NCBI GenBank assembly: GCA_965220745.1
Contig: CBDCQT010000013.1
Location: 672,001-736,000, forward strand
Origin: Alphaproteobacteria bacterium
GTDB taxonomy: Bacteria; Pseudomonadota; Alphaproteobacteria; UBA828
Direction of reading: 5' to 3'
Length of the DNA stretch: 64,000 nt
Numbering within the stretch: the first letter of the stretch is position 1; each line of letters starts with the position of its first letter. The position numbers and the translations under genes were made by a program. Shown here piece by piece: positions 2,133-62,500 of this stretch. The notes beneath the pieces are model-generated. The model was not told the DNA's origin. It ran no database searches and saw only the letters and a list, made by a program, of their open reading frames with translations.

Positions 2133-3468
2133 CCTCGTTCTGATCGCCCTCGTGCTGACGGCCATGGCGGCAGTCGCCGCGGTGGACGCCCGGCGCGCGA
2201 TCGTGGACCCGCGCCTGGTGCTTGCGCTGGTGGGCGCCGGCCTGCTCTGGCGCCTGTTCGGACCGGTCGAGACCGGGCCGTTATGGACTGGCCCCGCAGG
2301 GGCCGCGCTCGGTGTCGCCGTCGTTGCCGTGCCGATCGCGCTCGCGCAGCTGTGTCGCCGGCGCTGGCCGCTCTTTCCCGGCGATGCGATGATGCTGGGC
2401 GGCCTCGGCTTCGTCCTCGGCCCTCTTGGGCTGGGCTGGTCGCTGCTGGCAGGCGCAACCCTGGCCTCCTTGTACCGCGCCTGGCTCCAGCGCCGCCGGG
2501 GCCGCTCCTTCTTCCGGGGGTACTGCCCGCTCGGGCCCGGCATGATGGCCGGCGCCATGGCGGTGTTCGTGTTCGTGAACGCCGACGGGGCGCTCGCGGC
2601 GGACGAGGCGCAGATACCGCTTCCTCCGCAGCATCCGGCCCTGCAAGACGCACCAGCCCCCACTCCCCCACTTGCGCCATCTCGCCCGGGTGCGAGCGTA
2701 GCGGCCGCCGACACACCCGAGCTCGCGGCATCGGAGCTCGCGCCGGTACGGATGCCGCTGCCGTCTTCGCTCGCCGCCAGGGCAGTCGCGATCGACGGGA
2801 CTGAGCCGCTCGCGTTGGCAGCGATCGCGGAACGCATCGCCACGCTGGCGGGCGTCCCGGTGGAGGTCGAGGAGCGGCCCGCGCGTGTCGCGGGCGGCGC
2901 CGTGCGGCTGCCCGATCCGCCGCGAGTGCGTCTCGCGTTCGAAGGGGCGCTGCCCGGCCTGCTGAACCTCGTCGCGGCGCGCGCCGGCTACGACTGGGCG
3001 TACCAGGGCGATCCCTTGGGCGAGCCTGATCCGCTGGACCAGGGCGATCCCCTGGACCGGCGAGATCTGCTGGACCGGCGTAATGCGCCGTGGGCGGAGG
3101 GCGGAATCGTGTTTTACCGCTACCACGATGTCGAGCAGCGCATGCCCGGCATGATGAGGGCCACCCCCGGAAGCCAGGGGGCGGCTGTCGGCCGCGGCGG
3201 CGATGAGGCCGCAGTCTGGCGCATCGACCGCGAGCGGCACGCGACCTTGCGCGCGGTGCTCGAAGAATGGGGCACGCTGGCAGGCTGGTCGGTGGTGTGG
3301 ACCCCCCGGCGCGACTACGCCGTGCGCGCCGATGCCGCCTTCGAGGGCAGATTCCTCGACGCCGTGGACGGACTGCTGGCGGCACCGGCGACGCGGCGCT
3401 CCCTGGTGGCGCTGGCGTATGAGCCCAACCGCCACCTGGTGATCGAGCCGGCGGGAGGCGTGCGATGA
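2119..3468 (+). CDS. A24 prepilin peptidase fused to periplasmic TcpQ/PilL-like domains
   Basis: TM region with AAVDARRAIVD, FPGDAMMLGGLG and CPLGP (A24 motifs); C-terminal TLRAVLEEWGTLAGWSVVW...DYAVRADAAFEGRFLDAV is TcpQ-like. Confidence 0.7.
   Translation: MTATDLVLIALVLTAMAAVAAVDARRAIVDPRLVLALVGAGLLWRLFGPVETGPLWTGPAGAALGVAVVAVPIALAQLCRRRWPLFPGDAMMLGGLGFVLGPLGLGWSLLAGATLASLYRAWLQRRRGRSFFRGYCPLGPGMMAGAMAVFVFVNADGALAADEAQIPLPPQHPALQDAPAPTPPLAPSRPGASVAAADTPELAASELAPVRMPLPSSLAARAVAIDGTEPLALAAIAERIATLAGVPVEVEERPARVAGGAVRLPDPPRVRLAFEGALPGLLNLVAARAGYDWAYQGDPLGEPDPLDQGDPLDRRDLLDRRNAPWAEGGIVFYRYHDVEQRMPGMMRATPGSQGAAVGRGGDEAAVWRIDRERHATLRAVLEEWGTLAGWSVVWTPRRDYAVRADAAFEGRFLDAVDGLLAAPATRRSLVALAYEPNRHLVIEPAGGVR
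3000..3089 (-). repeat. 18-bp family A array, 5 degenerate units
   Basis: GGACC recurs at 3036, 3054 and 3072; encodes YQGDPL-GEPDPL-DQGDPL-DRRDLL-DRRNAP. Confidence 0.85.
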
Positions 3469-4178
3469 GACCGCGCCATCCAGCCGTTCTCGCCGCGCTC
3501 TGCCTCGCTGTGCCTCTCGCCGGCGGCTGCGCTCCGCTGGGGCTGCAGCTCGGAATTGCCACGGAGGCGTCTCCGCCGAAGGCAAGCGAGAGCCTGAGGA
3601 CGGACCCTGCCGGGATACGGCTCGCCGAGGCGGCGGAGCGCGCGGAGGCGGCGCTGACCGCGCTGGCCATGATGCGCGCGGCAGAGATGCCGCCGCGCCC
3701 TGGCGGCATGCTGGCCGAAGCAGCAGGGAGTTCCCCTGTACCGGGAAGTTCTCCCGTGCCGGCGGAGTTGCTGCGCGCGGTGACGATCGACTGGATCGGC
3801 CCGGTCGAGACCCTGGCCGAGGCCCTCGCGCGACGCGCAGAGTACCGTTTCGTCATGGCAGGCGCGCCATCTGTGCGGCCGGTCATGGTCTCCGTCACGG
3901 TCCGGGACACGCCCCTGATAGAGGTGCTGCGGGACCTCGGCCTGCAGGCCAGCAATGCCGCGACCCTGGTCGTCGATGCGAACGGCCGCACGGTCCACCT
4001 CGACTGGACAGGGGAACACCCTGGTCCAGGGGATCACCCCGGTCCAGGGGATCACCCCGGTCCAGGGGATCACCCCGGTCCAGGGGATCACCCCGGTCCA
4101 GGGAAACACCCCGGTCCAGGGAAACACCCCGATTCAGATGAACGACCCGGTTCGGCGCCGGGGCAGGAGGGAACATGA
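3465..4178 (+). CDS. dotD: DotD/TraH-family lipoprotein
   Basis: Lipobox LAGGC; VTIDWIGPVETLAEALA..AEYRF and VLRDLGLQAS are DotD-like; first gene of the dotDCB order. Confidence 0.8.
   Translation: MRPRHPAVLAALCLAVPLAGGCAPLGLQLGIATEASPPKASESLRTDPAGIRLAEAAERAEAALTALAMMRAAEMPPRPGGMLAEAAGSSPVPGSSPVPAELLRAVTIDWIGPVETLAEALARRAEYRFVMAGAPSVRPVMVSVTVRDTPLIEVLRDLGLQASNAATLVVDANGRTVHLDWTGEHPGPGDHPGPGDHPGPGDHPGPGDHPGPGKHPGPGKHPDSDERPGSAPGQEGT
3720..3755 (-). repeat. 18-bp family A, 2 units
   Basis: gcagcagggagttcccct-gtaccgggaagttctccc, encoding GSSPVP twice. Confidence 0.75.
4011..4154 (+). repeat. 18-bp family A array, 8 units
   Basis: ggggatcaccccggtcca four times exactly, plus variants; encodes the GDHPGP tail of DotD. 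Confidence 0.95.
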
Positions 4179-5041
4179 CCCGCATGTGCATATTGCTGCT
4201 GGCCCTCGTGTGCCTCGGCGCCGATATCGCCTTCGGCGCGGACGAACCCCCGATGCTGGAAGCGCTGCTGAAAGCAGAGCCGCCGGATGGGGCGGGAATC
4301 GACGACGGCGGTCTCTCCGGAGAGATGCGCGGCTCCGCCATGCGTTTGTCTGCGCTGACCTTCGGCTCCCGCGCAGGACTGGCCCGGCGGGGCTGGGAGA
4401 TCGCCGCGATGCTGGAGCGCCATGCCCACAAGCTCTCCGCCGTCTACCGCTTCCGTGACCTGATGCTGGAGAAGGACGGCTTCACCGTGATGCCGCCGGT
4501 GCTGGCGGAGACCGACCGTGTCTTCCGGCTCGGCCGCGATGGCGCCCGCGCTGCGAGCGCACGCCGTGTCGTTCGCATCGTCGAGCCCGAGCGGATCGTG
4601 AGTGCCGTGCCGCACTGGCGCGAGTTCCTGGTGCGCGAATGGTCCGGGGCCGAGCTGCCGGCGGCGGTGCTGTTCCCCCGCAGCAGTGCCGAGGCCGCGC
4701 GCTGGCGGCGCTGGCTGCGGGAGGGATGGGAGCACGGCACCGCGCTCGTGGACGACATCTTCGCCGCCGACCTCGACCGCCTGAACCGGGTGTTCGAGGG
4801 GCTGGTGCAGTGGCGCCGGGCTTACCTGGCGGGAATGGTCTCGTCGCCTTCGCTCGAGACGGAACGCATCGCTGCGAGCGGCCACGGGCAGCTGGTGCGG
4901 ATCGGGGAGACCCTCGCGCGCCTCGGCCCGCCGGCCCGCTTCGAGCTCCGGCCCCGGCAATGGAAGGCGCTCCCCTACGCCCCTTCGGGCGGAGGCACCC
5001 CTGCGGGTGGAGGCACCCCTTCGGGTGGAGACACCCAATGA
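4175..5041 (+). CDS. dotC: DotC-family type IVB secretion protein
   Basis: ALTFGSRAGLA, VMPPVLAE, VRIVEPERIVSAVPHWREFL, FAADLDRLNRVFEG; lies between dotD and dotB. Confidence 0.8.
   Translation: MTRMCILLLALVCLGADIAFGADEPPMLEALLKAEPPDGAGIDDGGLSGEMRGSAMRLSALTFGSRAGLARRGWEIAAMLERHAHKLSAVYRFRDLMLEKDGFTVMPPVLAETDRVFRLGRDGARAASARRVVRIVEPERIVSAVPHWREFLVREWSGAELPAAVLFPRSSAEAARWRRWLREGWEHGTALVDDIFAADLDRLNRVFEGLVQWRRAYLAGMVSSPSLETERIAASGHGQLVRIGETLARLGPPARFELRPRQWKALPYAPSGGGTPAGGGTPSGGDTQ
4978..5036 (+). repeat. 18-bp family B array, 3 units
   Basis: cgccccttcgggcggagg-cacccctgcgggtggagg-caccccttcgggtggaga. Confidence 0.85.
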
Positions 5042-6243
5042 ACCGTCGCTGGGCGGACGCCGATCACGCCTTCCCGGCCGCAGGGCTGGACCGCTTCCTG
5101 CTCTGGGCCGCCGATCTCGGTGCCTCCGACATCGCCTTCCAGACCGGCTCCCCCGCCTTCATCGAGGTGGACGGCATCCTGCACCGCGCCACCGGCGCGC
5201 GCCTCGACGGCGTCGTCATGGGCAGGCTCTGCGCGCGCATCTTCGATAACGTCCCTTCCGATGGAAGCACCTCTTCGGGTGGCGGCACCGCAGACGGGAT
5301 CCTGCGCTCGGGCAAGGCCATCGACTGCTCCTATGCCGTGGCCTCCGGACCCAGGGAGTTTCGGCGCTTCCGTTGCAACCTGTCGCCGGTCCTCGCCGGG
5401 CAGCGCTTCGGCATCAACATCACCATGCGGGTACTCCCCGACAGCCCGCCCACCCTGGAGGAGCTGGGCGTCGAGCCGGAGGTCGCGGAGGCGTGGGACC
5501 TCTGCCGGGGCCTCACCCTGGTCACGGGCGTGCCGGGCTCCGGCAAGTCGACCCTGCTCGCGGCAGGGACCAGGCGGCTCCTGGAGAGCGGCGCGGGCCG
5601 CATTCAGTCCTACGAGGCGCCGATCGAGTTCGTCTTCGACGGCATCGCCGGCGACGGCGCGCTGATGTCGTCCTCGGAGGTGCCACGCCACTTCCCGAGC
5701 TTCGCCGAGGGACTGAGGTCCAGCCTGCGGCGACGACCTTCGGCTGTGATCGTGGGCGAGGCGCGGGACCGGGAGACGGTCGAGGCGGTCGTGCGGGCGG
5801 CGGACTTCGGGATCGCAGTGTTCGCGACGGCGCACACGGTTGGGGTAGCCGCCGCCATTCGTCGTCTCCTGGCGGAATTTCCGGCGGACGAGCGCCAGGA
5901 GCGCGGCGCGGCGCTGATCGACGTGATGACGCTGGCGGTGACCCAGGTGCTGCTGCCCAACCCGCAGTGCGATCTCACCCCTGCGGGTGGGCGCACCGCA
6001 ATCCGCGAGTGGCTGCGCTTCGACGGCGCGCTGAAGGCACGGCTGATGGAGGCGCCGCAGGAACGCTGGTCCGGTCTGATCGCGGAAGCCCTGCGGTGCA
6101 CGGGAAACGATCTCGCGGCTGGCGCGGAGCGGGCCTTTCGGGAAGGGCGGATCGCCGAGGCGGACAGGCGACGGCTGACGGCTGCCGCCGCAGCCGGTCC
6201 GCAAGCCGCCGAGCCCGGCACGAGAGGGAGGACATGGCAATGA
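5038..6243 (+). CDS. dotB: DotB/TraJ PilT-like ATPase
   Basis: GASDI, Walker A GVPGSGKST, YEAPIEFV, SLRRRPSAVIVGEARDRET; ATGA overlap with dotC. Confidence 0.9.
   Translation: MNRRWADADHAFPAAGLDRFLLWAADLGASDIAFQTGSPAFIEVDGILHRATGARLDGVVMGRLCARIFDNVPSDGSTSSGGGTADGILRSGKAIDCSYAVASGPREFRRFRCNLSPVLAGQRFGINITMRVLPDSPPTLEELGVEPEVAEAWDLCRGLTLVTGVPGSGKSTLLAAGTRRLLESGAGRIQSYEAPIEFVFDGIAGDGALMSSSEVPRHFPSFAEGLRSSLRRRPSAVIVGEARDRETVEAVVRAADFGIAVFATAHTVGVAAAIRRLLAEFPADERQERGAALIDVMTLAVTQVLLPNPQCDLTPAGGRTAIREWLRFDGALKARLMEAPQERWSGLIAEALRCTGNDLAAGAERAFREGRIAEADRRRLTAAAAAGPQAAEPGTRGRTWQ
5250..5289 (+). repeat. 18-bp family B, 2 units inside dotB
   Basis: cgtcccttccgatggaag-cacctcttcgggtggcgg; a further single unit at 5976-5993. 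Confidence 0.7.
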
Positions 6244-6540: not shown

Positions 6541-7247
6541 GTATCTCGATACCCGGTATCTCGATGCCCGGTATCCCGTTGCCCGGCATTTCGTTGCGCG
6601 GCATCCCGACCCTCGTCTCGACGCCTGTCTCATTGGCGATGTCGACGCTGGTCCCGACGGCAACGTCGATCCGTGCCTCGATATGCGCCGTCGCGATGTC
6701 CGTCTCGGCCGCGGCCATGTTCTCCCCCGCCGAAGCCGACTTCCTCTACGTGCCGCCCCGCGAAGCCTCTGCCGTGGCGGAGAGCGGGAAGGACCGCGCG
6801 CCGGCCGTCCATCGGGCGGCAACGGAAAAGAACGATCGTGCGGGCAACCGAGGCCACGGCAATCACGGAGAGACGACGACGCACATGCACGGGACCGGCG
6901 CTCACCATGCCGATGCCGAGCCACTGGAGAAGAGCGGCTCCGCGGGCCCCTGGCAGGTCCATGCCGGCGAGATGCTGCGCGAAGCGCTGGATCGCTGGGG
7001 AGAGCGCACAGGCGTCGAGGTGCTGTTCCTGACCGACCGGCGCTACCGGCTGCACGAGGGCCGCGCGTTCGAAGGCGCGTTCGACGAGGCGGCACGGGAC
7101 TTGTTCGCCGCCCTCTCCCACCTGCCGCACCCGCCCGCCGGCGAGATGAGGCCGGACGGGCGAACGCTGGCGGTCATGCATCAGGCGAGCGTGCACCAGG
7201 CAAGCCTGCATCGGGCGAGCCCGCGCGGTGCAGGAGGCAGACAATGA
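6537..7247 (+). CDS. TcpQ-domain (PilL-like) protein
   Basis: WQVHAGEMLREALDRWGERTGVEV...YRLHEGRAFEGAFDEA; start uncertain; 15-bp tandem repeats at both ends. Confidence 0.65.
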   Translation: MSISIPGISMPGIPLPGISLRGIPTLVSTPVSLAMSTLVPTATSIRASICAVAMSVSAAAMFSPAEADFLYVPPREASAVAESGKDRAPAVHRAATEKNDRAGNRGHGNHGETTTHMHGTGAHHADAEPLEKSGSAGPWQVHAGEMLREALDRWGERTGVEVLFLTDRRYRLHEGRAFEGAFDEAARDLFAALSHLPHPPAGEMRPDGRTLAVMHQASVHQASLHRASPRGAGGRQ

Positions 7248-8197
7248 GACGCGGAACGGCAGGCCTCGTGCTGGCGTCGGGGCTTCTGATCGCAACGCTG
7301 TCGGCGGCACATTCGGGCAATGCGCACGATGCGGCCCAGACGGATGCCGGGAACGACGTGCCTGTGGTGTCTGCGCTCCGCGCCAACGGCGCGCACATCC
7401 TGACCCTGGGCGAACGGGGCGGGCTCCAGGGGCACTTCGTGGAGCTTGCCAATGGCGACGCCTACGGCCTCTACGTCACGCCCGACGGCCATGCCGTTAC
7501 CGGCCTCCTCTACGGACCCGACGGCACACTGCTCACGGGCCGCCAGATCGAGGCGGCGGGCGGGGAGAGAGGCGCGGCCGCCGAGACGCTGGCGGCGCAC
7601 GGTGCAAGGCGTGCCGCCCGCGATAGCGAGGTCTCCTCCGTCAACTGGAGGTCCGGCGCGGAGGAAACCGCGGGCGGCGCGGGCGGCTTCGCCGACGCAT
7701 ACACCTCCGGTCGCAACGTATCCGCCGTCGAAGCGCTGGACGAGGGCGATCCCCTGGACCGGGACGATGTCTTGTTCCGGCGCGCGGCCTTCGCGTTCGG
7801 CTTCAGCCTCGGGCACACCGGCCCGTTGGCGGTGGTGTTTGCCGATCCGGGCTGCCGCTGGTCGCGCTCGGCGGTGGCACGGCTCGCCCGGCTTGCGCTC
7901 GACGGGCGCCTGAGGCTGCACGCCGTCCCGGTCGGGGTGCTGGGCTCGGCGTCGGCCCGCGAGGCTGCCGCCATCGCCTCCGCCGGCGATCCCGCAATGG
8001 CCTGGTTCGAGGGAGCCGCCGGGCCGGCGAGCCCGGAGGGCGGGCGGCGGATCGCGCGCAACAACGCGCTCTTCGATGCGTGGGGAGCCGGCGCGGTGCC
8101 CCTGATCGCCTGGCGCACTGCCGAAGGCCGTGTCGCCCACAGCCTCGGCGACATCGACGATCTCGATGCCTGGCTGGAGACCCTTCCCCATGAGTGA
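7244..8197 (+). CDS. DsbG/TrbB-like periplasmic thioredoxin-fold protein
   Basis: Signal peptide; LYVTPDGHAVTGLLY; VFADPGCRWS (CxxS); VPVGVLG; GAVP cis-Pro loop. Confidence 0.75.
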   Translation: MRRGTAGLVLASGLLIATLSAAHSGNAHDAAQTDAGNDVPVVSALRANGAHILTLGERGGLQGHFVELANGDAYGLYVTPDGHAVTGLLYGPDGTLLTGRQIEAAGGERGAAAETLAAHGARRAARDSEVSSVNWRSGAEETAGGAGGFADAYTSGRNVSAVEALDEGDPLDRDDVLFRRAAFAFGFSLGHTGPLAVVFADPGCRWSRSAVARLARLALDGRLRLHAVPVGVLGSASAREAAAIASAGDPAMAWFEGAAGPASPEGGRRIARNNALFDAWGAGAVPLIAWRTAEGRVAHSLGDIDDLDAWLETLPHE

Positions 8198-8834: not shown

Positions 8835-9910
8835 GGACCGGATCAGTGCTCTTTCTGCTAGCTGCCGCTGCGGTGATGGCGACGGTGACCGGGGCCGTTG
8901 CCGCCGGCGACGGGGCATCGGAAGGCGGAGCCGATACCTGGGCCGGCCACGCGGTGTCGGACGACGACGTGGCACGGGGCGGCCGCGCCGCGATGCCGTT
9001 CACGGCGAAGCAGATCGAGGCCCTGGGCCGTCTGCTGCAGGAGACGCAGCGGGCAGCGTCGGTGGCGGCGGACCCGGTACCGCAAGGACGCATCAGGCGG
9101 GTGCGCATCGGCTCCCCCGGAGAGGGCGCGATCCCCATGATCGCGGTGCGCAAGGGCTACGTGACGGCGGTCTCGTTCGCCGACGCCACCGGCGCGCCCT
9201 GGCCGATCGAGGACGCGCTGGTGGATGCACGGTTTCTGTCTGAGACAGTCGTGACTGGGACAGTTCGTCCTGCTGGCGGGGCGGGAGACGATGGCGGTGC
9301 CGGCCGGGGGAGCGGCCGTGTGCCAAGCCACCTTCTGTACCTGTTCCCGCAGGCGCGCTCCCTGCACGGCAACGCGGCGGTCAAGCTTCTCGGTCTCGCG
9401 GAGCCCCTGGTGCTGAGCCTTCGGGGCGGCGGAGCGGACACCGACTTCCGGGTGGAGATCAGGCTGGGGCTGCCCGGACCCAACGCCGAGCCTGCGGCAA
9501 CTGCCCCGTCCGGCTTCCACGCGGGCAATGCGGTGCTTCTGGACCTGCTGGGCGGCATCGCGCCGCCAGGTGCTGAGCGTCTCATGGTTGAAGGTGGCGG
9601 GCGGGACGACCGCGCCTGGCGCGTGAGCGGCGACCTTCTTCTGGTGACCCGCGCGCATCTGCTCTCGCCGGGGCCGTGGGCGGCAGAGCGCGGGGCCGGA
9701 GGCCGCTGGGCCTACCGGCTTCCCGATGTGCCCCACGCCCTGGTGAGCCAGGACGGGGGAACGTCCTTGTCAGGACGCGAAACGCGCCTCGCCTTCCGGG
9801 CATGGGGGGAGAGCGGGGTGCACCACGGAGTTCACCTGGACCGGAGAGTTTCAGCGCACCGGGGAGCTCCGCTGTTTCCGGGGTTGGAGAGAGAGGGAGA
9901 ACGGCAATGA
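8831..9910 (+). CDS. dotH: DotH/IcmK (TraN-like) protein
   Basis: GYVTAVSFADATGAPWPI, GNAAVKLLGLAEPL, LGLPGPNA, RAHLLSP. Confidence 0.8.
   Translation: MRTGSVLFLLAAAAVMATVTGAVAAGDGASEGGADTWAGHAVSDDDVARGGRAAMPFTAKQIEALGRLLQETQRAASVAADPVPQGRIRRVRIGSPGEGAIPMIAVRKGYVTAVSFADATGAPWPIEDALVDARFLSETVVTGTVRPAGGAGDDGGAGRGSGRVPSHLLYLFPQARSLHGNAAVKLLGLAEPLVLSLRGGGADTDFRVEIRLGLPGPNAEPAATAPSGFHAGNAVLLDLLGGIAPPGAERLMVEGGGRDDRAWRVSGDLLLVTRAHLLSPGPWAAERGAGGRWAYRLPDVPHALVSQDGGTSLSGRETRLAFRAWGESGVHHGVHLDRRVSAHRGAPLFPGLEREGERQ
9755..9873. repeat. 18-bp family A units in the dotH 3' end
   Basis: Forward unit gggggaacgtccttgtca (9755-9772); three reverse units at 9820-9873 (HHGVHL-DRRVSA-HRGAPL). Confidence 0.65.
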
Positions 9911-11064
9911 ACGCGAAGGCGAATGGAAGAGCCTCCGGCGCCGGCCGGCTCGCCGTGGCGGCCTTGCCCGCCATGCTGTGCGCGGCGGTCTGGGCCGGAG
10001 CTGTGTGGGCCGACGTGCCCGACAACCGGGGTGTGGGGTTCAACCCCGACGATCCGGTATCGCCGGCATACGGAGAGACGATCCAGGATCGGGACGAGCA
10101 GCGCCTCGGCGATGCGCTGGAGCATGGCGAGACCTTCATCTCCACGGTCGACGGCACGGGACGGGCGCTGCAAGAGGGTCCGCCGCTTCCCCTGGAGCAC
10201 GGGAGCGATCCCGCAGAGGTAGGGAGTGCGTCGCCGGATCCGGCAGTGAAGGCGCCCCGGCCGGTTCCGGCCTACGAAAGCATCAGCCGCCCCCGAACGC
10301 GCGGCCGGGACAGGGACGGCGGTCTCGCGGCGATGATCGGCGCTCTGCTGGAGAGCTGGACCCGGCCGCCGGAGATCGTGCGTCTGCGCTATGCGGATCC
10401 GCAGGAGCGCGGCAGCGATGCGGCGCGGTCTTCCGCAGCTCCGGAACCGCCGGCGCCGGTGGATGACGGCGTGCACCTGCCGCACGTCGCGGCGGGCCAG
10501 GGCTTCTACGCACACACTCTCTATGCCGTGGACTCGGACTATCCCGGTCCCGTGGTGCTGGAGCTGCTGCAGCCGCCGCTGGTGGGCGCGGTGGCGCACG
10601 GCGGCTTCGAGCGCGTCGGGGAGAGGCTGGTGCTCAGGCTTGCCAGCCTGACCTGGCGCGGCCGCACGCATCCCGTGGACGCCTGGGCCGTGGACCCCGA
10701 ATGCGCCTGCTTCGGCATCGAGGGCGAGGTGGACCGCCACTTCCTCGCCCGTGTCGTGCTGCCGGCGGCGGCCCGCTTCGCCGAAGGGTTCATGACCGCC
10801 GCCGCCATGCCGGCACGCACGCTGAGCCTGCAGGACGGCACCGTGCTGCACGAGCGCGGGGCGGGCGAGCGGGAAGCGCTCCACTCGGGCCTCGGGGCGG
10901 CGGCCCGCACCCTGGGCGACATCCTGACGGCCGATGCGCCGAAGGAGACCACGGTGCGCATCCCCCGCAACACGCCGCTGGTGGTCATGGTGGCTCGCCC
11001 GTTCGCAACGCCGCCGGGGGCGGCGGCTGCGTCGTGGCGGGAGAGGACCGATGCAGGGAACTGA
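9907..11064 (+). CDS. dotG: DotG/IcmE (VirB10-like) protein, short form
   Basis: AVDSDYPGPV, DAWAVDP, VDRHFLARVVLPAAARFAEGF, TTVRIPRNTP. Confidence 0.8.
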   Translation: MNAKANGRASGAGRLAVAALPAMLCAAVWAGAVWADVPDNRGVGFNPDDPVSPAYGETIQDRDEQRLGDALEHGETFISTVDGTGRALQEGPPLPLEHGSDPAEVGSASPDPAVKAPRPVPAYESISRPRTRGRDRDGGLAAMIGALLESWTRPPEIVRLRYADPQERGSDAARSSAAPEPPAPVDDGVHLPHVAAGQGFYAHTLYAVDSDYPGPVVLELLQPPLVGAVAHGGFERVGERLVLRLASLTWRGRTHPVDAWAVDPECACFGIEGEVDRHFLARVVLPAAARFAEGFMTAAAMPARTLSLQDGTVLHERGAGEREALHSGLGAAARTLGDILTADAPKETTVRIPRNTPLVVMVARPFATPPGAAAASWRERTDAGN

Positions 11065-11584
11065 CCTCGGCGGCGCAATGATCTCCCTGGTGCGGGACCT
11101 CGATCCCGCGCTCATGGTGCTGATCTCGGTGTGCTGCTACCTGCTTGGGTTTGCAGCCTTCATCCAGGGGTGCGCGCGCCTGCTGCGCCTCTCCGAGGAC
11201 CGCTTCAACGGACCTTCGGTTGCCGGCACCGCGCTCTGCTTCCTGGTCTGCCTGGTCATGACGAGCTTTCCCTCCTGGCTCGCCGCCGGCGGCGAGAGCC
11301 TGTTCGGGCAGGGCACCGCAGCGTCCGCCAGCATCGGTCACGGCAGCCGGGGCGCGGACTACGACGCCGTCATCGGCGCGGTGCTCACCGTCGTGGGCTG
11401 GGTCGGCGTTCTGGCCTTCCTGCGCGGCGCCTTCGTGCTGCGGGCCGCGGCGGACGGCGTGCCGGGCGCAAGCGCAGGCCGCGCCGCCATGCACATGCTG
11501 GGCGGGATCTGCGCCTGGCACATCGAGAGCCTGATCGGTGCGGTGCAGACCAGCCTCGGCATCCAGGTGCTGAGGGTCACGTGA
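11051..11584 (+). CDS. IcmC/DotE (TraQ)-like membrane protein
   Basis: Four TM helices; WVGVLAFLRG, HMLGGICAWHI; position after dotG. Confidence 0.65.
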   Translation: MQGTDLGGAMISLVRDLDPALMVLISVCCYLLGFAAFIQGCARLLRLSEDRFNGPSVAGTALCFLVCLVMTSFPSWLAAGGESLFGQGTAASASIGHGSRGADYDAVIGAVLTVVGWVGVLAFLRGAFVLRAAADGVPGASAGRAAMHMLGGICAWHIESLIGAVQTSLGIQVLRVT

Positions 11585-11595: not shown

Positions 11596-12015
11596 ATGAC
11601 CAACGCAATCGCACTCCTTCGAGTGGCGACACCCCTTCGGGTGGTTACACCCCTTCGGGTGGCGACACTGACGGCCATCGCGGGCGCGACGCTGTGGGCC
11701 GGGGGGCTGCTTCGGACCCCGCCCGCGCTGGCCGTGTCGTTGGGCGACATGGCCGACAAGGCGGCCACGGACCTCGACGCGGTGCCGGCGCTGCTCGCCA
11801 TCGGCTTCTATATCGTCGGCGCCGCCGTGGCGGGCTTCGGTCTGCTCAAGCTCAAGCGTCACGTCGATCACCCGCAGCAGACCACGCTCGGCTCGGGCCT
11901 CATCGCCATCCTCATCGGCGTGGCCCTGATCGCGGCCCCTGCGGTGATCAACGGCCTCGTCGACACCTTCGGCCTCGGCGGCGCGGTCCAGACCGTCAGC
12001 CGGCCCAGGCTCTGA
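11596..12015 (+). CDS. IcmD/DotP (TraR)-like small membrane protein
   Basis: RBS gaggag; FYIVGAAVAGFGLLKLKRHVDHPQQT..LIGVALIAAP. Confidence 0.65.
   Translation: MTNAIALLRVATPLRVVTPLRVATLTAIAGATLWAGGLLRTPPALAVSLGDMADKAATDLDAVPALLAIGFYIVGAAVAGFGLLKLKRHVDHPQQTTLGSGLIAILIGVALIAAPAVINGLVDTFGLGGAVQTVSRPRL
11612..11668 (+). repeat. 18-bp family B array, 3 units
   Basis: cactccttcgagtggcga-caccccttcgggtggtta-caccccttcgggtggcga; read as PLRVAT, a different frame from the dotC copies. Confidence 0.85.
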
Positions 12016-12046: not shown

Positions 12047-15000
12047 GTGACCCGCGTTCTCGAAGACGCCCTGGCGGCGAGCTGGACGCTGCGGCGCAAG
12101 CCGCTGGAGAGCTTCATGCTGCCGCAAGCCGCCATCGGCGACGGCATGCTCGCGTGCTCGGACGGCTCCCTGGTCTCGCTCATCCGCATCGACGGGGCGC
12201 GCTCGATGACCGGGGCCGAGGAGCTGGAGCGTTTCGTGGAACTGGCCTGCCGGCGTCTCAACAGCCGCCTGGCTGCGCCCGGTCATGCGCTGCACCTGAT
12301 GCTGGAGCGCGCACCCGACGATGCCGGGACACAGGTGGAGCGGATATGTGCGCGGGCCGGAGCCCAGGCATCTCGGCTCGGCCTCTCACTCAGCGACGTC
12401 CTGGACGAGCGGTCGCGTTATCTGGGCACCCTGCTCGCAGCCGAGAGCGTGATCTTCGCGTGCTGGACCCGGCCCGCGTGCCTCACGGCAGCCGAGGCCA
12501 GGCGGGGCCGCAAACGTCTGCGGCAGTGCCTCAAGGCCTGGCTGCCCGAGGCGGGGGAAGCCCAGTGCCCCGATGCCGTGCTCGACGGACTGGAGCCACG
12601 CCACCGGGCGCTCATGGACGCCATGGGCGCGCTGTTCGACGAGGCCGGCATCGTGGCAGAGCGGCTCGATGACGAGGCGGCGCTCAGGACCATGCGCGTG
12701 CTGCTCAACGGGACGGAGACCACTGCACCCGACTGGCGTCCTGTGACGGCAGAGAACGATACGCCGGCTCGGGCCACCGAGTCCCCCGAAGCGGGGGCCT
12801 TCCCGCCGCCGTTGGCGCCGCAGCTCCTGGTCCGCGATCCGCTGCACGCATCGAACGGCATCCGCATCGGCGGCCGCCTCTACGGCGCAATGGACATGGT
12901 GCTTGGGCCCAGGTGCGCGCGGCCCTTTGCCGAGCTGATGGAAGGCCTGGCCGAGGCGAAGCTGCCCTGCCGCTTCTCGATCCTCATCGAGGGCGGTGGG
13001 ATGCGCCGCCTCGGCGCCGCCGTCGCAAGGGTCTCGTCCGCCTTCCTCGCCTTCTCCCATCCCGACAGCTGTGCGGTGAGAGACGCCATGCGGGCACTTG
13101 CCGAGCAGGACGCTGCGGCGCAGGCGGTCGTCAGGCTTCGCATCGGCATGCTCACGTGGGTGGGAGCGCAGGAAGATGGGGAAGAGCTCGCGCGCCGGCT
13201 CGGGCGCCTCCAGCAGGTCGCCGAGGGATGGGGCGAGTGCGTGTTCTCGCCCCTCGTCGGAGACCCCCTCGAGGCCTTCGCGGCCTCGGTGCCGGGCTTC
13301 TGCTGCGGCGGCACCGCCGAGCCCGCGCTCGCCCCCCTCTCCGAGGCGCTGCGCCTCCTGCCCGTCTGCCGCCCCGCGGCCCTGGCGCGCTCCGCCGGAA
13401 CGGCCCGGCCCGGCGGAAGTTCCCGGAACGGGGGAACGCCCCGGAACGGGGGAACGCCCCGGAACGGGGGAACGCCCCGGAACAGGGAAGCACCCTGGTC
13501 CGCGGTCGACCACATCTTCCGGGCGCCCGACGGCAGGATGCTCCCCTTCTCCTGCAGCGGCGGCGAGGACCACGGCTTCGAGCTGATCCACGGCATCCCC
13601 GGCCGGGGCAAGTCGGTGCTGATGAACAGCCTTAGCCTCGCCCACCTCCTCCAGGGGGGCCAGGCCAGGCTGCCGCTTTCCGCCACCATCGACATCGGGC
13701 CCTCGTCCTCCGGCCTGATCTCGCTGATCCACGAGGCGCTGCCGCCGGAGCGGCGCGCCGAGGCGGGCTGGTTTCCGCTCCGCATGACCACGGCGTGCGC
13801 CATCAATCCCTGCGACACGCAGCTCGGCTGCCGCTCGCCCCTTCCGGCCGAACGCGCCTTCCTGGAGAACCTGGTGGGCCTGATCCTGACCCCTGCGGGC
13901 GTGGCAGGGGTGCCCGACGGCATGCGCGAGCTGATCGGGCCCACCGTGGACCGGGCCTACGGGCTCCGTTCCGATGCCATCGCCGGTGCCGAGCCCAACG
14001 TCTACACGCCCGGCAGGGACGGAGACGTGGACCGCGCCCTGGAGCGCGCCGGACTCGCTCCTTCGGACCTTCCCTGGTGGGAGGTGGTGGACCTGCTCTT
14101 CGATGCGGGCGATGCGGTGGCAGCGTCGCGAGCGCAACGCTACGCGGTGCCGGTATTGGGCGATTTCCTTGCCGCGGTGCGCGAGCCTGCGGTGCAGGGG
14201 CTGGTTGGCGAGGCGGTGCACGGCGCGGGCGGAGAGACCGTGACCCGGGCCTTCATCCGCATCCTCACGTCGCTGGCGGGCTCCTGGCCTGCGATGTTCG
14301 CGCCGACCGCCTTCGATACCGGCGCCGCCAGGGTGGCGGCCATCGACTTGCGCGAAGTGGCGCCGAGGGGCTCGGCCGAGGCCGACCGCCAGACCGCCGC
14401 CTTCTACATGCTGGCCCGCCACGCGCTGACCCGCCATTGGTGGATTGGGGAAGAGGACATCGACCAGGCACCGGGGCGTTCCCCTGTGCCCGAGCGCTAC
14501 CGCGCGTGGCACCGGGAACGCCTGCGGGAGATCCGCGAGACCCCGAAGCGCCTCGCCTTCGACGAGTTCCACCGCACCGGCTCCGCTGCGGCGGTGCGCG
14601 CCCAGGTGGAGCGCGACGCGCGCGAGGCGCGCAAGCACGGCGTCCGCCTCTGCCTCGCCTCGCAGCGGCACGAAGACTTCGGGCCTGCCCTGGTCGAGCT
14701 TGCCAACCGCATCTGGGTGCTGGGGGCGGGCGGCAAGGCGGCGGAGCTGGAGGCGCTTTCCCGGGTGTTCGATCTCAGCGCCACGGTGGCGGACGCGGTG
14801 TCGTACCGGCTCACGGGGCCGGGCCCCGAGGGCGCGCCGGCGCTGCTCATCGCCACCCATCCCGGGGGTCGCCTCGAGCAGGTGCTGCTGAACGCGCCGG
14901 GGCCGGTGGAGCTCTGGGCGCTGACCACCAGTCCGCGGGATGCGGCGCTCAGGGAGCGCCTGTGCGCCCGCCTTGCGCCGGCCGAGGCACGGGCGGCGCT

Positions 15001-15184
15001 GGCCAGGCGCTTCCCCACCGGCACTGCGGGCGCCTGGATCGAGGCGGAGCTGCGCCGGCTGGAGCTGCGCGGCGCAAGGGTGGCCGCCTCCGAAAGCGAC
15101 CTGCTCGACAGGCTCGCGGACGAGCTCGCGAGCGGCGGAACGATCGTTGCAACCATGACCGAGAGGAGAACGGAACCATGTTGA
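12047..15184 (+). CDS. icmB: IcmB/DotO (TraU, VirB4-like) ATPase
   Basis: 1045 aa; DGSLVSLIRIDG, Walker A GIPGRGKS, IDIGPSSSGLIS, INPCDTQLG, FDEFHRT, REARK..V.LCLASQ, GPVELWALTT. Confidence 0.9.
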   Translation: MTRVLEDALAASWTLRRKPLESFMLPQAAIGDGMLACSDGSLVSLIRIDGARSMTGAEELERFVELACRRLNSRLAAPGHALHLMLERAPDDAGTQVERICARAGAQASRLGLSLSDVLDERSRYLGTLLAAESVIFACWTRPACLTAAEARRGRKRLRQCLKAWLPEAGEAQCPDAVLDGLEPRHRALMDAMGALFDEAGIVAERLDDEAALRTMRVLLNGTETTAPDWRPVTAENDTPARATESPEAGAFPPPLAPQLLVRDPLHASNGIRIGGRLYGAMDMVLGPRCARPFAELMEGLAEAKLPCRFSILIEGGGMRRLGAAVARVSSAFLAFSHPDSCAVRDAMRALAEQDAAAQAVVRLRIGMLTWVGAQEDGEELARRLGRLQQVAEGWGECVFSPLVGDPLEAFAASVPGFCCGGTAEPALAPLSEALRLLPVCRPAALARSAGTARPGGSSRNGGTPRNGGTPRNGGTPRNREAPWSAVDHIFRAPDGRMLPFSCSGGEDHGFELIHGIPGRGKSVLMNSLSLAHLLQGGQARLPLSATIDIGPSSSGLISLIHEALPPERRAEAGWFPLRMTTACAINPCDTQLGCRSPLPAERAFLENLVGLILTPAGVAGVPDGMRELIGPTVDRAYGLRSDAIAGAEPNVYTPGRDGDVDRALERAGLAPSDLPWWEVVDLLFDAGDAVAASRAQRYAVPVLGDFLAAVREPAVQGLVGEAVHGAGGETVTRAFIRILTSLAGSWPAMFAPTAFDTGAARVAAIDLREVAPRGSAEADRQTAAFYMLARHALTRHWWIGEEDIDQAPGRSPVPERYRAWHRERLREIRETPKRLAFDEFHRTGSAAAVRAQVERDAREARKHGVRLCLASQRHEDFGPALVELANRIWVLGAGGKAAELEALSRVFDLSATVADAVSYRLTGPGPEGAPALLIATHPGGRLEQVLLNAPGPVELWALTTSPRDAALRERLCARLAPAEARAALARRFPTGTAGAWIEAELRRLELRGARVAASESDLLDRLADELASGGTIVATMTERRTEPC
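13395..13502 (+). repeat. 18-bp family A array, 6 units inside icmB
   Basis: ggggaacgccccggaacg about three times plus degenerate flanks (GGTPRN); one reverse unit at 14468-14485. Confidence 0.9.
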
Positions 15185-16260: not shown

Positions 16261-16840
16261 CAGGACCCTTCTCCTCGCGGGTGTCCTGGCACTGGCGCTC
16301 TCCCTCTGGCCGGCAGAAGCCTCGGCGGCCGGCGTGGTGGGAGCTGCCGGTGCCGAGTGTGCGCCGGAGGTGGAACGCGCGCTGATCGAGGGTGCACGCA
16401 TGGGCGTCGAACGCGACGTGGCCGTCCTGCGCCATCCCGACCAGGGCATCCGCGACCCGGACTCGATCCTGGATTTCTCCTGCCTCGACGATCTCTTCGA
16501 TTTCCGGCGCTTCGACATCCTCTTCGATCCGGGCAGGAGCATGTCCGACCTGCTTGGCCTTGTGCAGCGGCGCATCTGCGCGGCTGCACGCGAGGCATAC
16601 CGCGGATACGTCGGCCGCCCCCTCAATGCGGCCCTCTACACCGCGCGCATTCCCCGGCTGCCGGGGCTCGGTCCGGTCCACGTGATCGAGAGCGCGGGGC
16701 GCGCCGGGAGCGCCGAGCGGGACCAAGGCATTCCCCTGGACCGGCGCTTCCCGCTGGAACAGGGCGTTCCGCTGGACCACGGCGTTCCCTTGTACCAGGG
16801 AGTTCCCGTGTTTCGTAGCATCGTGGGAGGCGGTCGATGA
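16244..16840 (+). CDS. Secreted hypothetical protein of the transfer cluster
   Basis: Signal peptide; Cys-containing core (SILDFSCLDDLF); overlaps both neighbours. Confidence 0.65.
   Translation: MPAMTSRTLLLAGVLALALSLWPAEASAAGVVGAAGAECAPEVERALIEGARMGVERDVAVLRHPDQGIRDPDSILDFSCLDDLFDFRRFDILFDPGRSMSDLLGLVQRRICAAAREAYRGYVGRPLNAALYTARIPRLPGLGPVHVIESAGRAGSAERDQGIPLDRRFPLEQGVPLDHGVPLYQGVPVFRSIVGGGR
16720..16809 (-). repeat. 18-bp family A array, 5 units
   Basis: ggaccaaggcattcccct ... gtaccagggagttcccgt; encodes DQGIPL-DRRFPL-EQGVPL-DHGVPL-YQGVPV. Confidence 0.9.
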
Positions 16841-59550: not shown

Positions 59551-62500
59551 CTACAGTTCCAGCTCGAGCTCGTACTCGTAGGTCTTCTCGCGCTTCGGCC
59601 GCGCAGGCGGAGCAGGCCGTCGATCGGCCGGGGCGGGGTCGCCGACATCGGCGCGCTCCAACGGCGCAGGTGCCGGCGCACCGCGTTCACGGTCCCGCTG
59701 CGGCACAGACTTGGGCTCTACCGGCTGGCGCGCCGCATCGTCCCTGGCCTTGCCGTCCCTCGCCGGACTGTCCGCCGGCGACGGCGCGATGGCTTCGAGG
59801 GCGGCGATGCGTTCTCCCGTCGCCGCCTCCAGGCGCTCGCGCAGTGCGCGGCGGTCGTCGGTCACCAGCTCGGCATGAAGGCGGGCACGGCTGATCTCCA
59901 CGTAGAAGGTTTTTTGGGTGGTCAGATGGGCGTGCTCCGCTTCCATCGCCGCGATCACCCGGTCCACGGTGCGGCCCTGGAACGCGTGCACCGTCGCTGC
60001 CCAGGCCCGGTCGATATGGCGCAGCTGGGGATCGTCCCGGCGCAGCGTCAGAGCCCGGCCGTCCTCCAGCCGGAACGAGACGGCTCTCTCGCCGACCGCC
60101 GACACCTCCGCCGTGCCGCTGTTCACCAGCCCGTGCCTCCTGTCGTTGCGGGTCCAGCACACCCGGTCGCCGCGGCGAAGCTCCATGGCATCCACGGCGT
60201 AGACCTCCACCCCGCCGCGCCGCGCCGCCAGCCTGGCGGGTTCCCAGGCGACGGTAGCGCCATGCTTGCCTTGCAGCGTCACCACGCCTGCGGCGCGGTC
60301 GACAGCTGCGACGCTGATCTCGTCGCCCTTGTCGACCCCGAGACGCTTGTAGCGGCGGTGGAAGGCCACGACATCGCCCGGGACATAGTTCGCGGCAAGC
60401 GACTTCTCGGCATTGGTATAGCCGCGCGAGACGAGCCTCTCGCCATCGATCGCAGGCCCATCGATGACGCCGTCGCGGACCAGGCGCTCGCGGACGATGG
60501 TGTTGGTCTTCTCTCTCAGCGCGTGGCTGGGGGCCATCAGCCCCGTGACCTCCCGCTCTCCGGGCGAGAGCGCAAGCCAGCGCGCGGCGGCAGCGCCCGC
60601 AAGATTGTCCGCCTTCACCTCCGCGACGTTGTCGCCGAGTTTTCGGAAGGCCCGGTGAATGTCGCCGGCGAGGCTGGCCTCGACGGCCTCCTTCAGCGCC
60701 GGCTCGCGCTGGCGCACGATCTCATCCATCACCGCGCACGTCATGCCTGCGGTCTGCAGCTGCGCGAAGGGCTTGCCGGCGTCGACGGCATCGAGCTGCT
60801 TCTCGTCACCCACCAGGATCACACGGGGGATGCGGAGCGTGTCGGCGATCCTGAGAAGGTCGCGGGTCTGCGCGGTGGAGGCGAGGGAGCCCTCGTCCAC
60901 CACCAGCACGGTCTTGCGGAACCGTGCCTTCATGGCCCGCTCGCCCCTGCGGGAGAGCCGATCCTCGGCAACGCCCGCGTTGCGGGCGAGGAAGCCCTGC
61001 AGGGTCTCGCTGGCAATGCCGGCCTCCGCATCGAGAGTGCGCGCCGCAGAGGCCGACGGCGCCAGGCCCCTGACCTCGAAGCCGCGCTTCTCCAGCAGAG
61101 CCCGCGCCCTGTTCAGCATGGTGGTCTTGCCGGTGCCGGCATAGCCCTGCACGCCCACGACGCGATCGTTGTGGGACAGGATCACCTTCACCGCCTCCTT
61201 CTGCCCGGTCGTAAGGGGGCCGTTGCGGAGCGCCTTGTCGACGGCGCGCCCGCGCATGGGAGCAGCACCCCGCCCCTGTCCGCGTTCCATCAGCGCTATG
61301 GTCTCGCGTTCGTCGGCGACAGTCCTGTCGGTGGTGAGCGAATCCCCCGGCACGGGGTAGTCCGCAGCCAGCAGGGTGCCGGCCTTCTCCAGCCGCGTGA
61401 CGGCGGCCTCAGCCTCGCCGATGCTCACCTTGCCGGGATTCCAGGCGAGAGTCGAGGTGAGGAGATCGGTTCGCGAGAATACCGCCTCTCTCTCGGAGAG
61501 GTGCGCCACGGCCCAGGCGGCCGCCCGGTCCACTTCCGCCGTCGTACCAGGCTCCGCCTCCCGGTGCTGGCCTGCACGGGCGAGGGGTCGGTCTCCGTAG
61601 GCCGCCTGCCGGTGCCGGGCCTCGTTCACGAACTCACTTGCGTCGAAGCCCAGTTCCGAGGCCTGCCTCTGCCAGCTCTCGCGCAGGGCGTCCCTGTCCA
61701 CCTCGCGCTTGTGGGCGCGGGTCATGAGCGCCGCGCGCGCCGCCAGATGGGGGTTGCTTCCGGGATCGCCCTGGCTGCGAGCGTCCATCGCCGCCTCGAT
61801 CTCGGCGCGCCTGGTGGAAAAGGCCTCGACGATGGACCGCGATACGGGGGACCGCCCTGGTGCACCCGCGATCTCGAACCGCCCGTCCGCGTGGGTCTTC
61901 TCGATGCCGTAGCCGAGCTCCTCCAGGCCTCTCGCCAGCTCGGCGCGGTAGAGCGCGCCGATCAGCATCTTGGACGCATAGAGCTTCTCGTTGGCCATGG
62001 TGCGCCACTTCGCGGAACGGGGCGTTTCCCCGGACCGGGGCGTTCCCCCGTCCTGACCCTGCACCATGTTGGCGATCACCGCGTGCGTGTGGAGCTGTGG
62101 GTCGAGGTTGCGCGAGACCTCGTGGCGGAAGGTGGCGATCACCGCCTTCTGGTCTCCGGTGCGCACCATGCGGCCGCTGTCTGCATCCATCGTCCTGGTC
62201 TCGACCGCGTTCTTCTCGATCCAGGCAAGTGTCCTGCGCACGGCGGCGTCATGGGCAGCGACGATGCGTTCGTCGCCGCCGATCAGGGCCGCGATGGATA
62301 CGGACTTGGGCGCGGAGAAGGTGACGTCGCGGCCGGGGCGGTGGTCGATCGTACCGTCCCCCAGCCTGCGGCCGAGCCGGCGGCCCGAGCCGTCGGGGAC
62401 TTCGCCCGCGAGGATGTCGCTGAAGACGTCCGGATCGACCGGCCCGGAGAGCCCCAGAGCGTCCGCGCCCCTGCCCGCCCAGGCGCTGGCCTCCCGGTGG

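Follow-up and report, generated by a model that had tools for sequence, protein, structure and literature searches.

A very small, probably insertional DNA repeat in the transfer genes of one alphaproteobacterial lineage of IncI/Dot-Icm-type conjugative elements

The window analysed here is a stretch of 64,000 nucleotides (C13:672001-736000) from an alphaproteobacterial genome of 4.82 Mb, which is assembled in 13 contigs, has a GC content of 67% and is 99.96% complete. It carries an IncI1/Dot-Icm-type (type IVB) integrative and conjugative element (ICE) that covers positions 1 to ~33,500 of the window and ~12 kb upstream of it (~42 kb, C13:662.7-705 kb), and whose genes contain many copies of one 18-bp DNA unit, termed family A. 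On balance family A is probably a very small insertional repeat that colonises a single IncI/Dot-Icm-type ICE lineage by site-specific seeding and subsequent expansion through slippage. New copies appear as exact 18-bp or 18n-bp insertions that have fixed ends, occur in either orientation and lie preferentially at AC, while resident copies gain and lose whole units, as slippage predicts. Each insertion adds a Gly/Pro-rich hexapeptide to the encoded protein, and five of the six orientation/frame classes are found. A second family of equal size and architecture, family B, behaves like family A.

The abundance of family A in the ICE is far above expectation. An earlier consensus, searched with up to 3 mismatches, has 19 matches in the window against 0.54 expected, a count that no dinucleotide shuffle out of 100 attained. 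With Tandem Repeats Finder, seven family A arrays of period 18 are seen in the window, at 3002-3080, 4009-4131 (6.8 copies, 96% matches), 13397-13487, 16720-16807, 18165-18231, 24252-24290 and 62013-62050. Thirteen distinct seed units were used to construct a position weight matrix (PWM), which yields 46 matches in the window at a score of at least 10; as it was trained on the window's own units this enrichment is partly circular, a circularity of which matches in other genomes and the reversed-pattern controls are free. At a score of at least 16 the whole 4.82 Mb contains 53 matches, 42 of them in the ICE, 4 in a second relaxase module and 6 elsewhere, with one match at a rounded score of 16.0 accounting for the difference between 53 and the sum of 52. 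The density in the transfer region is thereby about one unit per kb (42 in 46 kb). In 38 ICE coding sequences 38 matches are observed, compared with a mean of 4.7 and a maximum of 10 after shuffling of synonymous codons and a mean of 0.12 after shuffling of codon order. Since synonymous shuffling keeps the proteins yet removes about 88% of the matches, it is the DNA that is conserved and not the peptide.

These counts agree in most respects with a preliminary description of the window made from its letters alone, which had held that the DNA rather than the four classes of encoded peptide is what is conserved, and the large excess of PWM matches over shuffles speaks for it. Its 18 loci all have a PWM match within a few bases except for 22639, which has none, yet at 22638-22655 an 18-bp indel separates the window from the related element L001. 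The estimate of about 15 unit-bearing genes is reached only if the upstream part of the element is counted, with 11 genes in the window carrying units that score at least 13. Arrays had been put at one to eight tandem copies and are found with 1 to 7-8; the two orientations and several frames are seen both in the window and in its relatives; and the reported lack of arrays in integrases and cargo holds, with only a single weak match (51065, score 15.2) between ~34,000 and 59,500.

The insertional nature of the units is revealed by related elements. The 1045-aa TraU/DotO-like protein of the window was compared with species-representative genomes, giving five related loci (Alphaproteobacteria, Rhodospirillales and Defluviicoccus metagenome-assembled genomes). 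ICE homologues were located in 14 of the 21 genomes of the genus and 13 further elements were taken, 45 kb each; with more contigs and metagenome loci added, codon alignments were prepared for 34 gene families of 4-25 sequences each. In the alignment of the 1045-aa protein two inserts of the window, of 36 and 6 residues, are not present in any of four relatives, and L002 has two 6-residue inserts of its own elsewhere in the gene. At the DNA level these inserts are exact 18-bp units, the two of L002 being reverse complements of one 18-mer. A 23-kb alignment with L001 (84% identity) contains gains and losses of units amounting to 18, 36, 54, 90 and 108 bp in many genes. Across the 34 families there are 68 alignment sites of family A (64 in a first pass), 56 of which vary in length by at least 5 residues; the number of sequences that fill a site is one for 12 sites, two for 13 and three for 10. 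PWM score shows no trend with the number of elements that share a site.

A survey of 664 distinct indels between sequences at least 75% identical displays peaks at 6 residues (100 indels), 12 (42), 18 (14), 24 (7) and 30 (6), against 58 at 5 residues, 24 at 7, 7 at 11 and 4 at 13. Multiples of six account for 173 indels, of which 84 belong to family A and 22 to family B, and many of the other 67 resemble decayed units. From the peaks and the family counts it follows that protein length in this ICE lineage changes mainly through unit insertion. Some of the events are recent: in certain pairs of filled and empty alleles only 3/84, 3/87 or 4/66 bases of the flanks are mismatched, and one change in copy number has no mismatch in 144 flanking bases. 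Contigs assembled from public sequencing runs differ from the window at arrays by 18, 54 and 72 bp; only assembled contigs were used in this comparison, and parts of the window that they do not cover carry no meaning. The preliminary description had proposed the insertion of a fixed 18-mer, with orthologues differing by multiples of six residues, and this is what the alignments contain, namely exact 18n-bp insertions with fixed ends and a preference for AC that relatives and outgroups lack, instead of ancestral protein segments.

With regard to those public runs, 78-95% of the words sampled from window positions 2900-5100 are present in four runs that come from a single sample, and fifteen other runs (nine labelled sponge metagenome, one metagenome and five with coded labels) hold about 27-32%. 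Contigs from four of these runs represent related elements that differ by whole units at arrays.

A purely slippage-driven variable-number tandem repeat (VNTR) was considered and rejected: copy number does change, but single units also occur at sites that are empty in all relatives.

The ends of the insert were mapped with a junction set of 34 events at 20 sites, in which flank mismatch was at most 15%, by asking which removed window of 18n bp best restores the empty allele. The register that starts one base before AGGGG (register -1) is optimal in 23 of the 34 events (18 of 28 in a first pass) and costs 12 excess mismatches when all events are summed; the neighbouring register is best in 20, and the fit quickly worsens with distance. 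The inserted piece is accordingly CAGGGGAACRCCCYGGTN with an ambiguity of one base, since a C is usually present in the target as well. At the 20 empty sites position -1 is A in 10 cases and position +1 is C in 14, and the two coincide as A|C at 9 sites where about one is expected (the AC/GT dinucleotide has a frequency of 4.3% in these genes; P = 6e-8). The preference for AC is not absolute, and a weaker CGCC tendency is visible downstream of the insertion point. No target duplication beyond the ambiguous C was found at the 20 sites. By a tally of the junction table the last base of the insert equals the 5' flanking base at 7 of 20 sites, an agreement estimated to be near chance, for which reason return microhomology and target duplication were both rejected. 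In the register of CAGGGGAACRCCCYGGTN the unit comprises a stem of 5 bp, a loop of 5 nt and a tail of 3 nt, and each unit is able to fold into a stem of 4-6 bp. At about half of the junctions inspected by eye the tail looks complementary to the 5' flank, which might lengthen the hairpin. Family A units begin with CAGG or CACC. Each of them (e.g. those at 4010-4153) also contains CCWGG or CCSGG together with GGWCC, palindromes typical of methyltransferase or restriction recognition.

The junctions bear on the main rival explanation, which dispenses with a dedicated enzyme: as ICE DNA is replicated or repaired, a nascent strand would switch template by microhomology to an array already present elsewhere in the element, copy one or more 18-nt periods and return, with slippage acting later. 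This is possible but fairly unlikely. Several targets do already resemble the unit, such as CAGGGGAA at the site g6 with its 7 registers, GCAGGG stands at a hot spot of the 1045-aa gene that two elements have used, the CGCC tendency of the empty sites recalls the centre of the unit itself, and the median number of equivalent registers is about 3; against these the insert ends are largely fixed, register -1 or 0 being optimal in most of the 34 events, and the near-chance agreement of the last base (7/20) leaves no return microhomology beyond a single C. Template switching would be expected to act in both orientations, hairpins could stall replication forks, and the Y1 search of the genome described below found no transposase-like gene. 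However, a microhomology of 2-3 bases should not confine dozens of events to one ICE lineage, the other 4.7 Mb of the genome are equally GC-rich and gain almost no units, and a single seeded unit stays near the consensus even if the arrays around it have variants of their own.

In the window all but one of the family A units are intragenic. The most upstream array (3000-3080, minus strand) comprises two clear and two degenerate units in a TcpQ-like gene (2119-3468), where it encodes YQGDPLGEPDPLDQGDPL, and 90 bp around it (2999-3088) are missing from the L001 orthologue. The neighbouring gene for a DotD-like lipoprotein (3465-4178) is occupied twice, by one or two units at the start of the DotD domain (3720-3755, minus strand), at a site whose length varies among elements, and by an array of 7-8 units in the C-terminal tail (4010-4153, plus strand) that encodes GDHPGP repeats. 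The latter is 54 bp longer than in L001, and contigs of other public runs differ from it by 54 and 72 bp. A single unit in a DsbG-like gene (7738-7755, minus strand; gene 7268-8197) occupies a site that is filled in a minority of elements. The DotH/TraN-like gene (8846-9910) carries a single 18-bp insertion (9755-9772, plus strand) that is unique to the window's element, 13 other aligned sequences having no residue there, as well as a degenerate array (9813-9873, minus strand; PWM scores 12.2 and 10.4) that amounts to a 54-bp insertion relative to L001.

The 1045-aa TraU/DotO-like gene (12047-15184) contains an array of GGTPRN repeats (13390-13501, plus strand), a 108-bp or 36-residue insertion that is missing in all four aligned orthologues, while G040_C3 has one unit at that site. 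The same gene holds a single exact 18-bp insertion encoding APGRSP (14468-14485, minus strand), whose empty allele reads GGGCA|CCAGG in the orientation of the unit. About five partly decayed units form an array at the C-terminus of a hypothetical gene (16720-16809, minus strand; gene 16244-16840) and differ in copy number among six elements. Near the N-terminus of the DotA/TraY gene (18165-18230, minus strand; gene 18054-20333) stand three to four units, with an 18-bp difference from L001, whose orthologue is 96% identical. The coupling protein gene has one unit (22947-22964, plus strand; gene 21385-23610), an 18-bp insertion relative to G039_C3b. In the TrwC-type relaxase gene (23713-26778) two units, GGTPRSGGTPRS, lie in the relaxase domain (24253-24288, plus strand) and their 12 residues align to a gap in the solved structure of R388 TrwC, 1omh; a weak unit farther downstream (24960-24977, minus strand; score 12.2) coincides with an 18-bp indel relative to L001 at 24952-24969. 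Two units in the DUF7146-Toprim primase gene (32277-32312, minus strand; gene 31799-32830, also on the minus strand) are a 36-bp insertion relative to G044_C1. Upstream of the primase gene lies an imperfect unit (32920-32937, plus strand), the sole intergenic one in the window, as the preliminary description had it. The gene of a second TrwC relaxase (59551-62589, minus strand) contains a single unit (61846-61863, plus strand), which is an 18-bp insertion relative to G040_C3, and a pair (62014-62049, minus strand) at the same protein position, aa 181, as in the first relaxase.

The two orientations are almost equally frequent, with 19 plus and 23 minus units in the ICE, or 27 and 33 when counted by site. 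Counted in the same manner, five orientation/frame classes are common (14, 6, 7, 16 and 16 sites) and the sixth, which would encode a hydrophobic peptide resembling T-R-V-F-P-W, occurs once in 60. One near-absent class is the pattern expected if units inserted at random and selection then acted on the peptide. The peptides in the window fall into the classes GDHPGP/GEHPGP, GGTPRN/GGTPRS, DQGDPL/DQGVPL and GPGSSP/APGRSP, and as read from the sequence none of the unit's six frames contains a stop codon. The earlier idea that it is the frame-preserving copies that survive in genes can be refined here, as 18 bp always keep the frame and the filter is then tolerance of the added peptide. Units lie outside or between known domains, as for the DotD domain (aa 89-181) with its arrays at aa 86 and aa 182-224, and persisting copies may generally sit in loops, linkers and tails that tolerate extra peptide.

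Such positions at domain borders and tails, the relaxase insert in the 1omh gap included, and the Gly/Pro-rich character of all the encoded peptides are also what would be seen if the repeats were protein-level linkers or ancestral low-complexity segments whose DNA likeness stems from the codon bias of a 70% GC element. This is very improbable, as one and the same 18-mer is read in five of the six orientation/frame classes to give unrelated peptides, the matches are largely lost on synonymous shuffling, and the inserts are lacking in all outgroups at most sites.

Family B consists of CACCCCTTCGGGTGG plus 3 nt and repeats with an 18-nt period (Tandem Repeats Finder). Allowing up to 2 mismatches, 8 of its 15 matches in the genome lie in the ICE, including every perfect one; elements of backbone clade I have 6-17 copies, G044_C1 has one and five clade-II elements have none. 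The two families are built alike, in that CA is followed by a run of three G/C bases, a loop, the complementary run, TG and a short tail to a total of 18 nt, and both fold as small hairpins. Four family B loci lie in the window, all on the plus strand. Three units of period 18 occupy the 3' end of the TraI-lipoprotein gene (4978-5036; gene 4175-5041) and vary in copy number among elements. The TraJ/DotB ATPase gene (5038-6243) has a single unit at 5268-5285, a site that ranges from 2 to 32 residues among 20 sequences, and another at 5976-5993, where L001 has one unit more. A further array of three units is found at 11612-11668 between the genes 11051-11584 and 11659-12015, with a DNA fold z of -3.7. 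Copy number varies between close relatives; nearly all family B junctions represent copy-number changes within arrays, leaving too few new sites for target analysis, and many regular-expression matches without length variation are probably due to chance. In the DotH/TraN-like gene of two elements one B unit is nested in an A unit at AA^C of the A loop, a single event which suggests that both families share one target rule. A regular-expression search for nested units returned ordinary tandem arrays only.

Two arrays of period 15, at 6541-6633 (GTATCTCGATGCCCG x4.6) and 7177-7229 (TGCATCAGGCGAGCC x3), are missing from the orthologous region of L001, relative to which they are insertions of 93 and 36 bp respectively. 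A hairpin signal is lacking in the former (z = 0.14). In general, short tandem repeats seem to form readily in this element.

The fate of the units after insertion was assessed at 18 sites where at least three sequences fill the unit block, by a crude test in which alignment inside repeats is uncertain. Pooled DNA identity is 0.51 in unit blocks and 0.68 in the flanks overall, or 0.59 at third codon positions of the flanks, and the block is more conserved than the flanking third positions at 7 of the 18 sites. At orthologous sites there is thus no conservation above the neutral background of the kind that marks parS-, ssi- or uptake-like families (0.51 against 0.59), and the alignments give no sign of selection on the unit DNA once inserted. 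Inserted units may therefore be thought of as passengers that would drift like unconstrained sequence, not as functional sites.

The preliminary description had offered as an alternative that the element is selected to carry many sites for a DNA-binding protein, and the identities just given (51% in blocks against 59% at third codon positions of the flanks), from a crude test, lend this no support. In its wider form, this explanation holds that selection for many functional copies accounts for the density, the units serving as single-stranded DNA (ssDNA) hairpin signals for the Toprim primase or single-stranded DNA-binding protein (SSB), as sites for a partition or silencing protein or as uptake-like marks of self. 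Uptake sequences have a density of about one per kb and lie inside genes in several frames, and the units reach a similar density in the transfer region of the one mobile element to which they are restricted; hairpins are possible on both strands, the element encodes a primase and two SSB-like genes, and the CCWGG/CCSGG and GGWCC palindromes can be read in each unit. An explanation by functional sites is nonetheless improbable, given that orthologous blocks are no better conserved than flanking third codon positions in this crude test, old arrays such as 16720-16809 are visibly decayed, positions and copy numbers vary among close relatives, and close relatives of the backbone carry only 0-6 units. 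Moreover, selection alone makes no exact 18-bp indels, so that an insertion process is needed anyway.

Units cluster in one genus and one ICE backbone clade only. In an order-level scan allowing one mismatch at most, 19 of 49 genomes are positive; within the genus 17 of the 20 other species carry the pattern, outside it only 1 of 28 genomes does, and a reversed-pattern control has 2 matches in total. A wider set of 400 genomes from elsewhere in the class contains 26 with one or two matches and none with more, which is about the control level. A metagenome collection provided 114 stretches with the exact 19-mer, to which two viral loci bring the total to 116. Of these loci 96 hold a single unit and are taken as chance level, and homologues of ICE genes are found at 15, comprising all loci with at least three units and 4 of the 9 with two. 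Since every locus with at least three units belonged to the ICE family, the units are a sharp marker for tracing this family in metagenomes. When a tree is built from the TraU-like protein, elements rich in units (15-42 matches per 45 kb) group as one clade, outside of which fall G044_C1 (0 matches), clade II (1-6) and L003-L005 (0-1).

How new copies are seeded can be approached through the enzymes encoded in the genome. Seeding may take place while ICE DNA is single-stranded or extruded as a hairpin, through an enzyme that works in trans, recognises structure, nicks and transfers strands; the most economical candidate would be the element's own TrwC-type HUH relaxase (23713-26778, plus strand). 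A search for Y1 transposases/REP-associated tyrosine transposases (RAYTs; PF01797) gave no match in the 99.96% complete genome, whereas the control search matched 6 of 14 reference genomes, and the only HUH nucleases found are TrwC-type relaxases. The first of these aligns to R388 TrwC (1omh) at 1.2e-54, with the HUH motif and both tyrosine positions aligned. R388 TrwC is reported to integrate DNA into a minimal target of 17 bp and to need both tyrosines for this (PMC3264647). The single reverse transcriptase (RVT_1) of the genome is on contig C6 and has no unit nearby. An oriT or nic site was sought as inverted repeats in the intergenic regions 20280-20760 and 32780-33560, where nothing convincing was found. 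That the relaxase itself performs the seeding step is doubtful. The boldest reading, and an unlikely one, is that the units are 18-nt single-hairpin 'nano-elements' in at least two families, the smallest transposable elements so far described, which would be cut and pasted as ssDNA at AC by an enzyme of the ICE, possibly its relaxase, during a single-stranded phase of the element. Each would then have the form CA-stem-loop-stem-TG plus a tail of 3-4 nt and would write hexapeptide linkers into essential secretion-system, relaxase and primase proteins.

A number of observations weigh against the preferred explanation, several of them against a simple relaxase model. G044_C1 has an orthologous type IV coupling protein (T4CP) and TrwC (64-69% identity) but not a single unit in 45 kb. 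The unit-rich elements carry relaxases of two deep clades, unit density follows the clade of the type IV secretion system (T4SS) backbone and not that of the relaxase, elements with a different relaxase still hold 1-6 units, and only 4 units are found across 26 kb of the second relaxase module, which shares the cell. The near-equal orientations do not fit action on the transferred strand alone, and no enzyme is tied to the units. Register -1 fails to be optimal in 11 of the 34 junction events, and at g6 (3/84 flank mismatches), where the target CAGGGGAA already resembles the start of the unit and 7 registers are equivalent, the insertion looks homology-driven. Family A hairpins are only modestly more stable than shuffles, with z between -1.3 and -2.2. 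The elements are mosaic; events were counted per site, and part of the sharing of sites reflects recombination. Finally, the gene calls come from a codon-bias model trained on the genome's own long open reading frames (ORFs). The simpler proposal that one relaxase subtype explains the units was dropped, there being no clean association of relaxase clade with unit density.

Comparison with known systems places the units nearest to the small dispersed repeats (SDRs) of heterocyst-forming cyanobacteria. Elhai et al. reportedly describe these as sequences of about 20 nt that stand singly or in tandem at many loci, are sometimes nested and are apparently mobile with no known transposase. Like them the units are very short, dispersed as well as tandem, insertion-polymorphic and in one case nested. 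They differ in that family A is exactly 18 nt long, almost entirely intragenic, confined to one conjugative lineage, alphaproteobacterial and endowed with a defined AC target and fixed ends. The SDRs appear closest in kind, and their features are found in the units; the likeness would be one of kind and not of family membership, with no sequence relationship and another taxon as host. VNTR minisatellites share the change in copy number by whole units, but slippage cannot seed new loci and dozens of new loci are seen. Uptake sequences (DUS/USS) are likewise placed in genes in several frames at about one per kb; they build up by point substitution and not through the exact indels observed here. 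The units are also unlike miniature inverted-repeat transposable elements, which measure tens or hundreds of bp and have terminal inverted repeats, a target-site duplication and a parent insertion sequence; the units have 18 bp, no duplication of more than 1 nt and no parent element in sight.

Rickettsia palindromic elements (RPEs) are described as ~150 bp long, with a conserved peptide each, and as spread over chromosomal metabolic genes (PMC10969869). They resemble the units in being palindromic, in lying in frame in unrelated genes of an alphaproteobacterium and in adding a tolerated peptide (PMC10969869). The 18-bp length, the four or five peptides instead of a conserved one, the tandem arrays and the restriction to an ICE set the units apart from RPEs. 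Repetitive extragenic palindromic sequences (REPs) are given as 20-40 bp long, extragenic and tagged by GTAG or CGTC (PMC3733652). The REP/RAYT and the 'peel and paste' IS200/IS605 systems rely on recognition of hairpins in ssDNA, insert beside a short specific sequence, cause no target duplication and employ an HUH enzyme in trans (PMC3201880, PMC5027513, PMC8266576). Family A has the short hairpin in common with both; its empty sites hold AC in 9 of 20 cases, a preference that is not absolute, and show no duplication beyond one ambiguous C. It is unlike REPs and REPINs in its 18-bp, intragenic units that begin with CAGG or CACC and in a genome without RAYT, and unlike IS200/IS605 in having one hairpin in place of two subterminal ones, no coding capacity, no PF01797 protein and a dinucleotide target. 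Site-specific integration by TrwC offers a relaxase of the same family as that of the ICE and a 17-bp target of about unit size (PMC3264647), although what it integrates is an entire transferred plasmid, at a site resembling oriT. PARCELs encode a conserved 25-residue motif in dyad-symmetric intragenic tandem repeats that are linked to mobile elements and apparently shuffled within genomes (PMC2996958). They lie in ORFs of unknown function, whereas the units add six residues with no conserved peptide and have conserved T4SS, relaxase and primase genes as hosts. A literature search, limited to the terms used, found no description of 18-bp in-frame repeats in conjugative elements.

The ICE that hosts the units has the make-up of a mating pair formation type I element, with T4SS, T4CP, relaxase, thin-pilus and integrase genes in one block, as named from matches to Pfam and NCBIfam profiles. 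The thin-pilus genes encode a secretin-like protein, a PilQ-type ATPase, PilR, PilS and a shufflon-type PilV; the T4SS genes encode DotD, the TraI lipoprotein, the TraJ/DotB ATPase, DotI, DotH, TraO/DotG, TraQ and DotA/TraY. To these are added the 1045-aa TraU/DotO-like protein, a TraW-like protein, a TrwB-type coupling protein, the TrwC-type relaxase-helicase, the DUF7146-Toprim primase and two SSB-like genes. The gene order is kept in 13 other elements. Two tyrosine integrases (34044-36494) are adjacent to each other, and beyond them lies, in inverted orientation, the second module with a primase (42903-43883), a YAcAr gene, cargo (PPK2, GMC oxidoreductase and an ABC transporter), the second TrwC relaxase (59551-62589) and a second coupling protein; a TraU homologue was not found in this module. 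The window shows two conjugative or mobilisable modules head to head around two tyrosine integrases (34044-36494, 42903-45749, 59551-64000). A third integrase and a DDE transposase are located upstream of the window (L006:1963-4891). ARAGORN detects no tRNA gene in the window or its two 20-kb flanks.

The genes for the long SSB, a 198-aa protein and the TraW-like protein (15178-18057) are 100% identical to those of the element in G030_C95, the L001 genome, which belongs to another species, and the adjoining 1045-aa gene is only 82% identical, a contrast that points to recent mosaic recombination between elements. The long SSB gene (15178-16260) has a C-terminal extension of ~250 residues, and only 2 of 13 other elements align beyond about residue 125; a separate short SSB-like fragment is present on the minus strand at 33521-33841. 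The relaxase gene is followed by a patch of lower GC content (26800-29900; 65-68% against 70-73% around it) that has no counterpart in the other elements compared and contains an ORF for an AAA_33/zeta-toxin-like kinase (27552-28121, minus strand).

Family A ranks among the smallest apparently mobile DNA units seen in bacteria; it is distinguished by its size, by being written exclusively in frame into essential transfer genes, by its confinement to one conjugative lineage and by an insert whose ends and target are defined. Genuine movement of the units would bring the minimum size of mobile DNA down to a single 18-nt hairpin. This ICE family would then offer a tractable system, with one element, a defined target and two families, in which to study the spread of very short dispersed repeats, such as SDRs and REP-like sequences, that lack their own transposase. 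Should the relaxase or another ICE enzyme prove responsible, it would represent a natural case of site-directed insertion of short ssDNA, of interest for genome tagging. For the elements themselves, the finding bears on the origin of linkers and loops in type IV secretion proteins, relaxases and primases.

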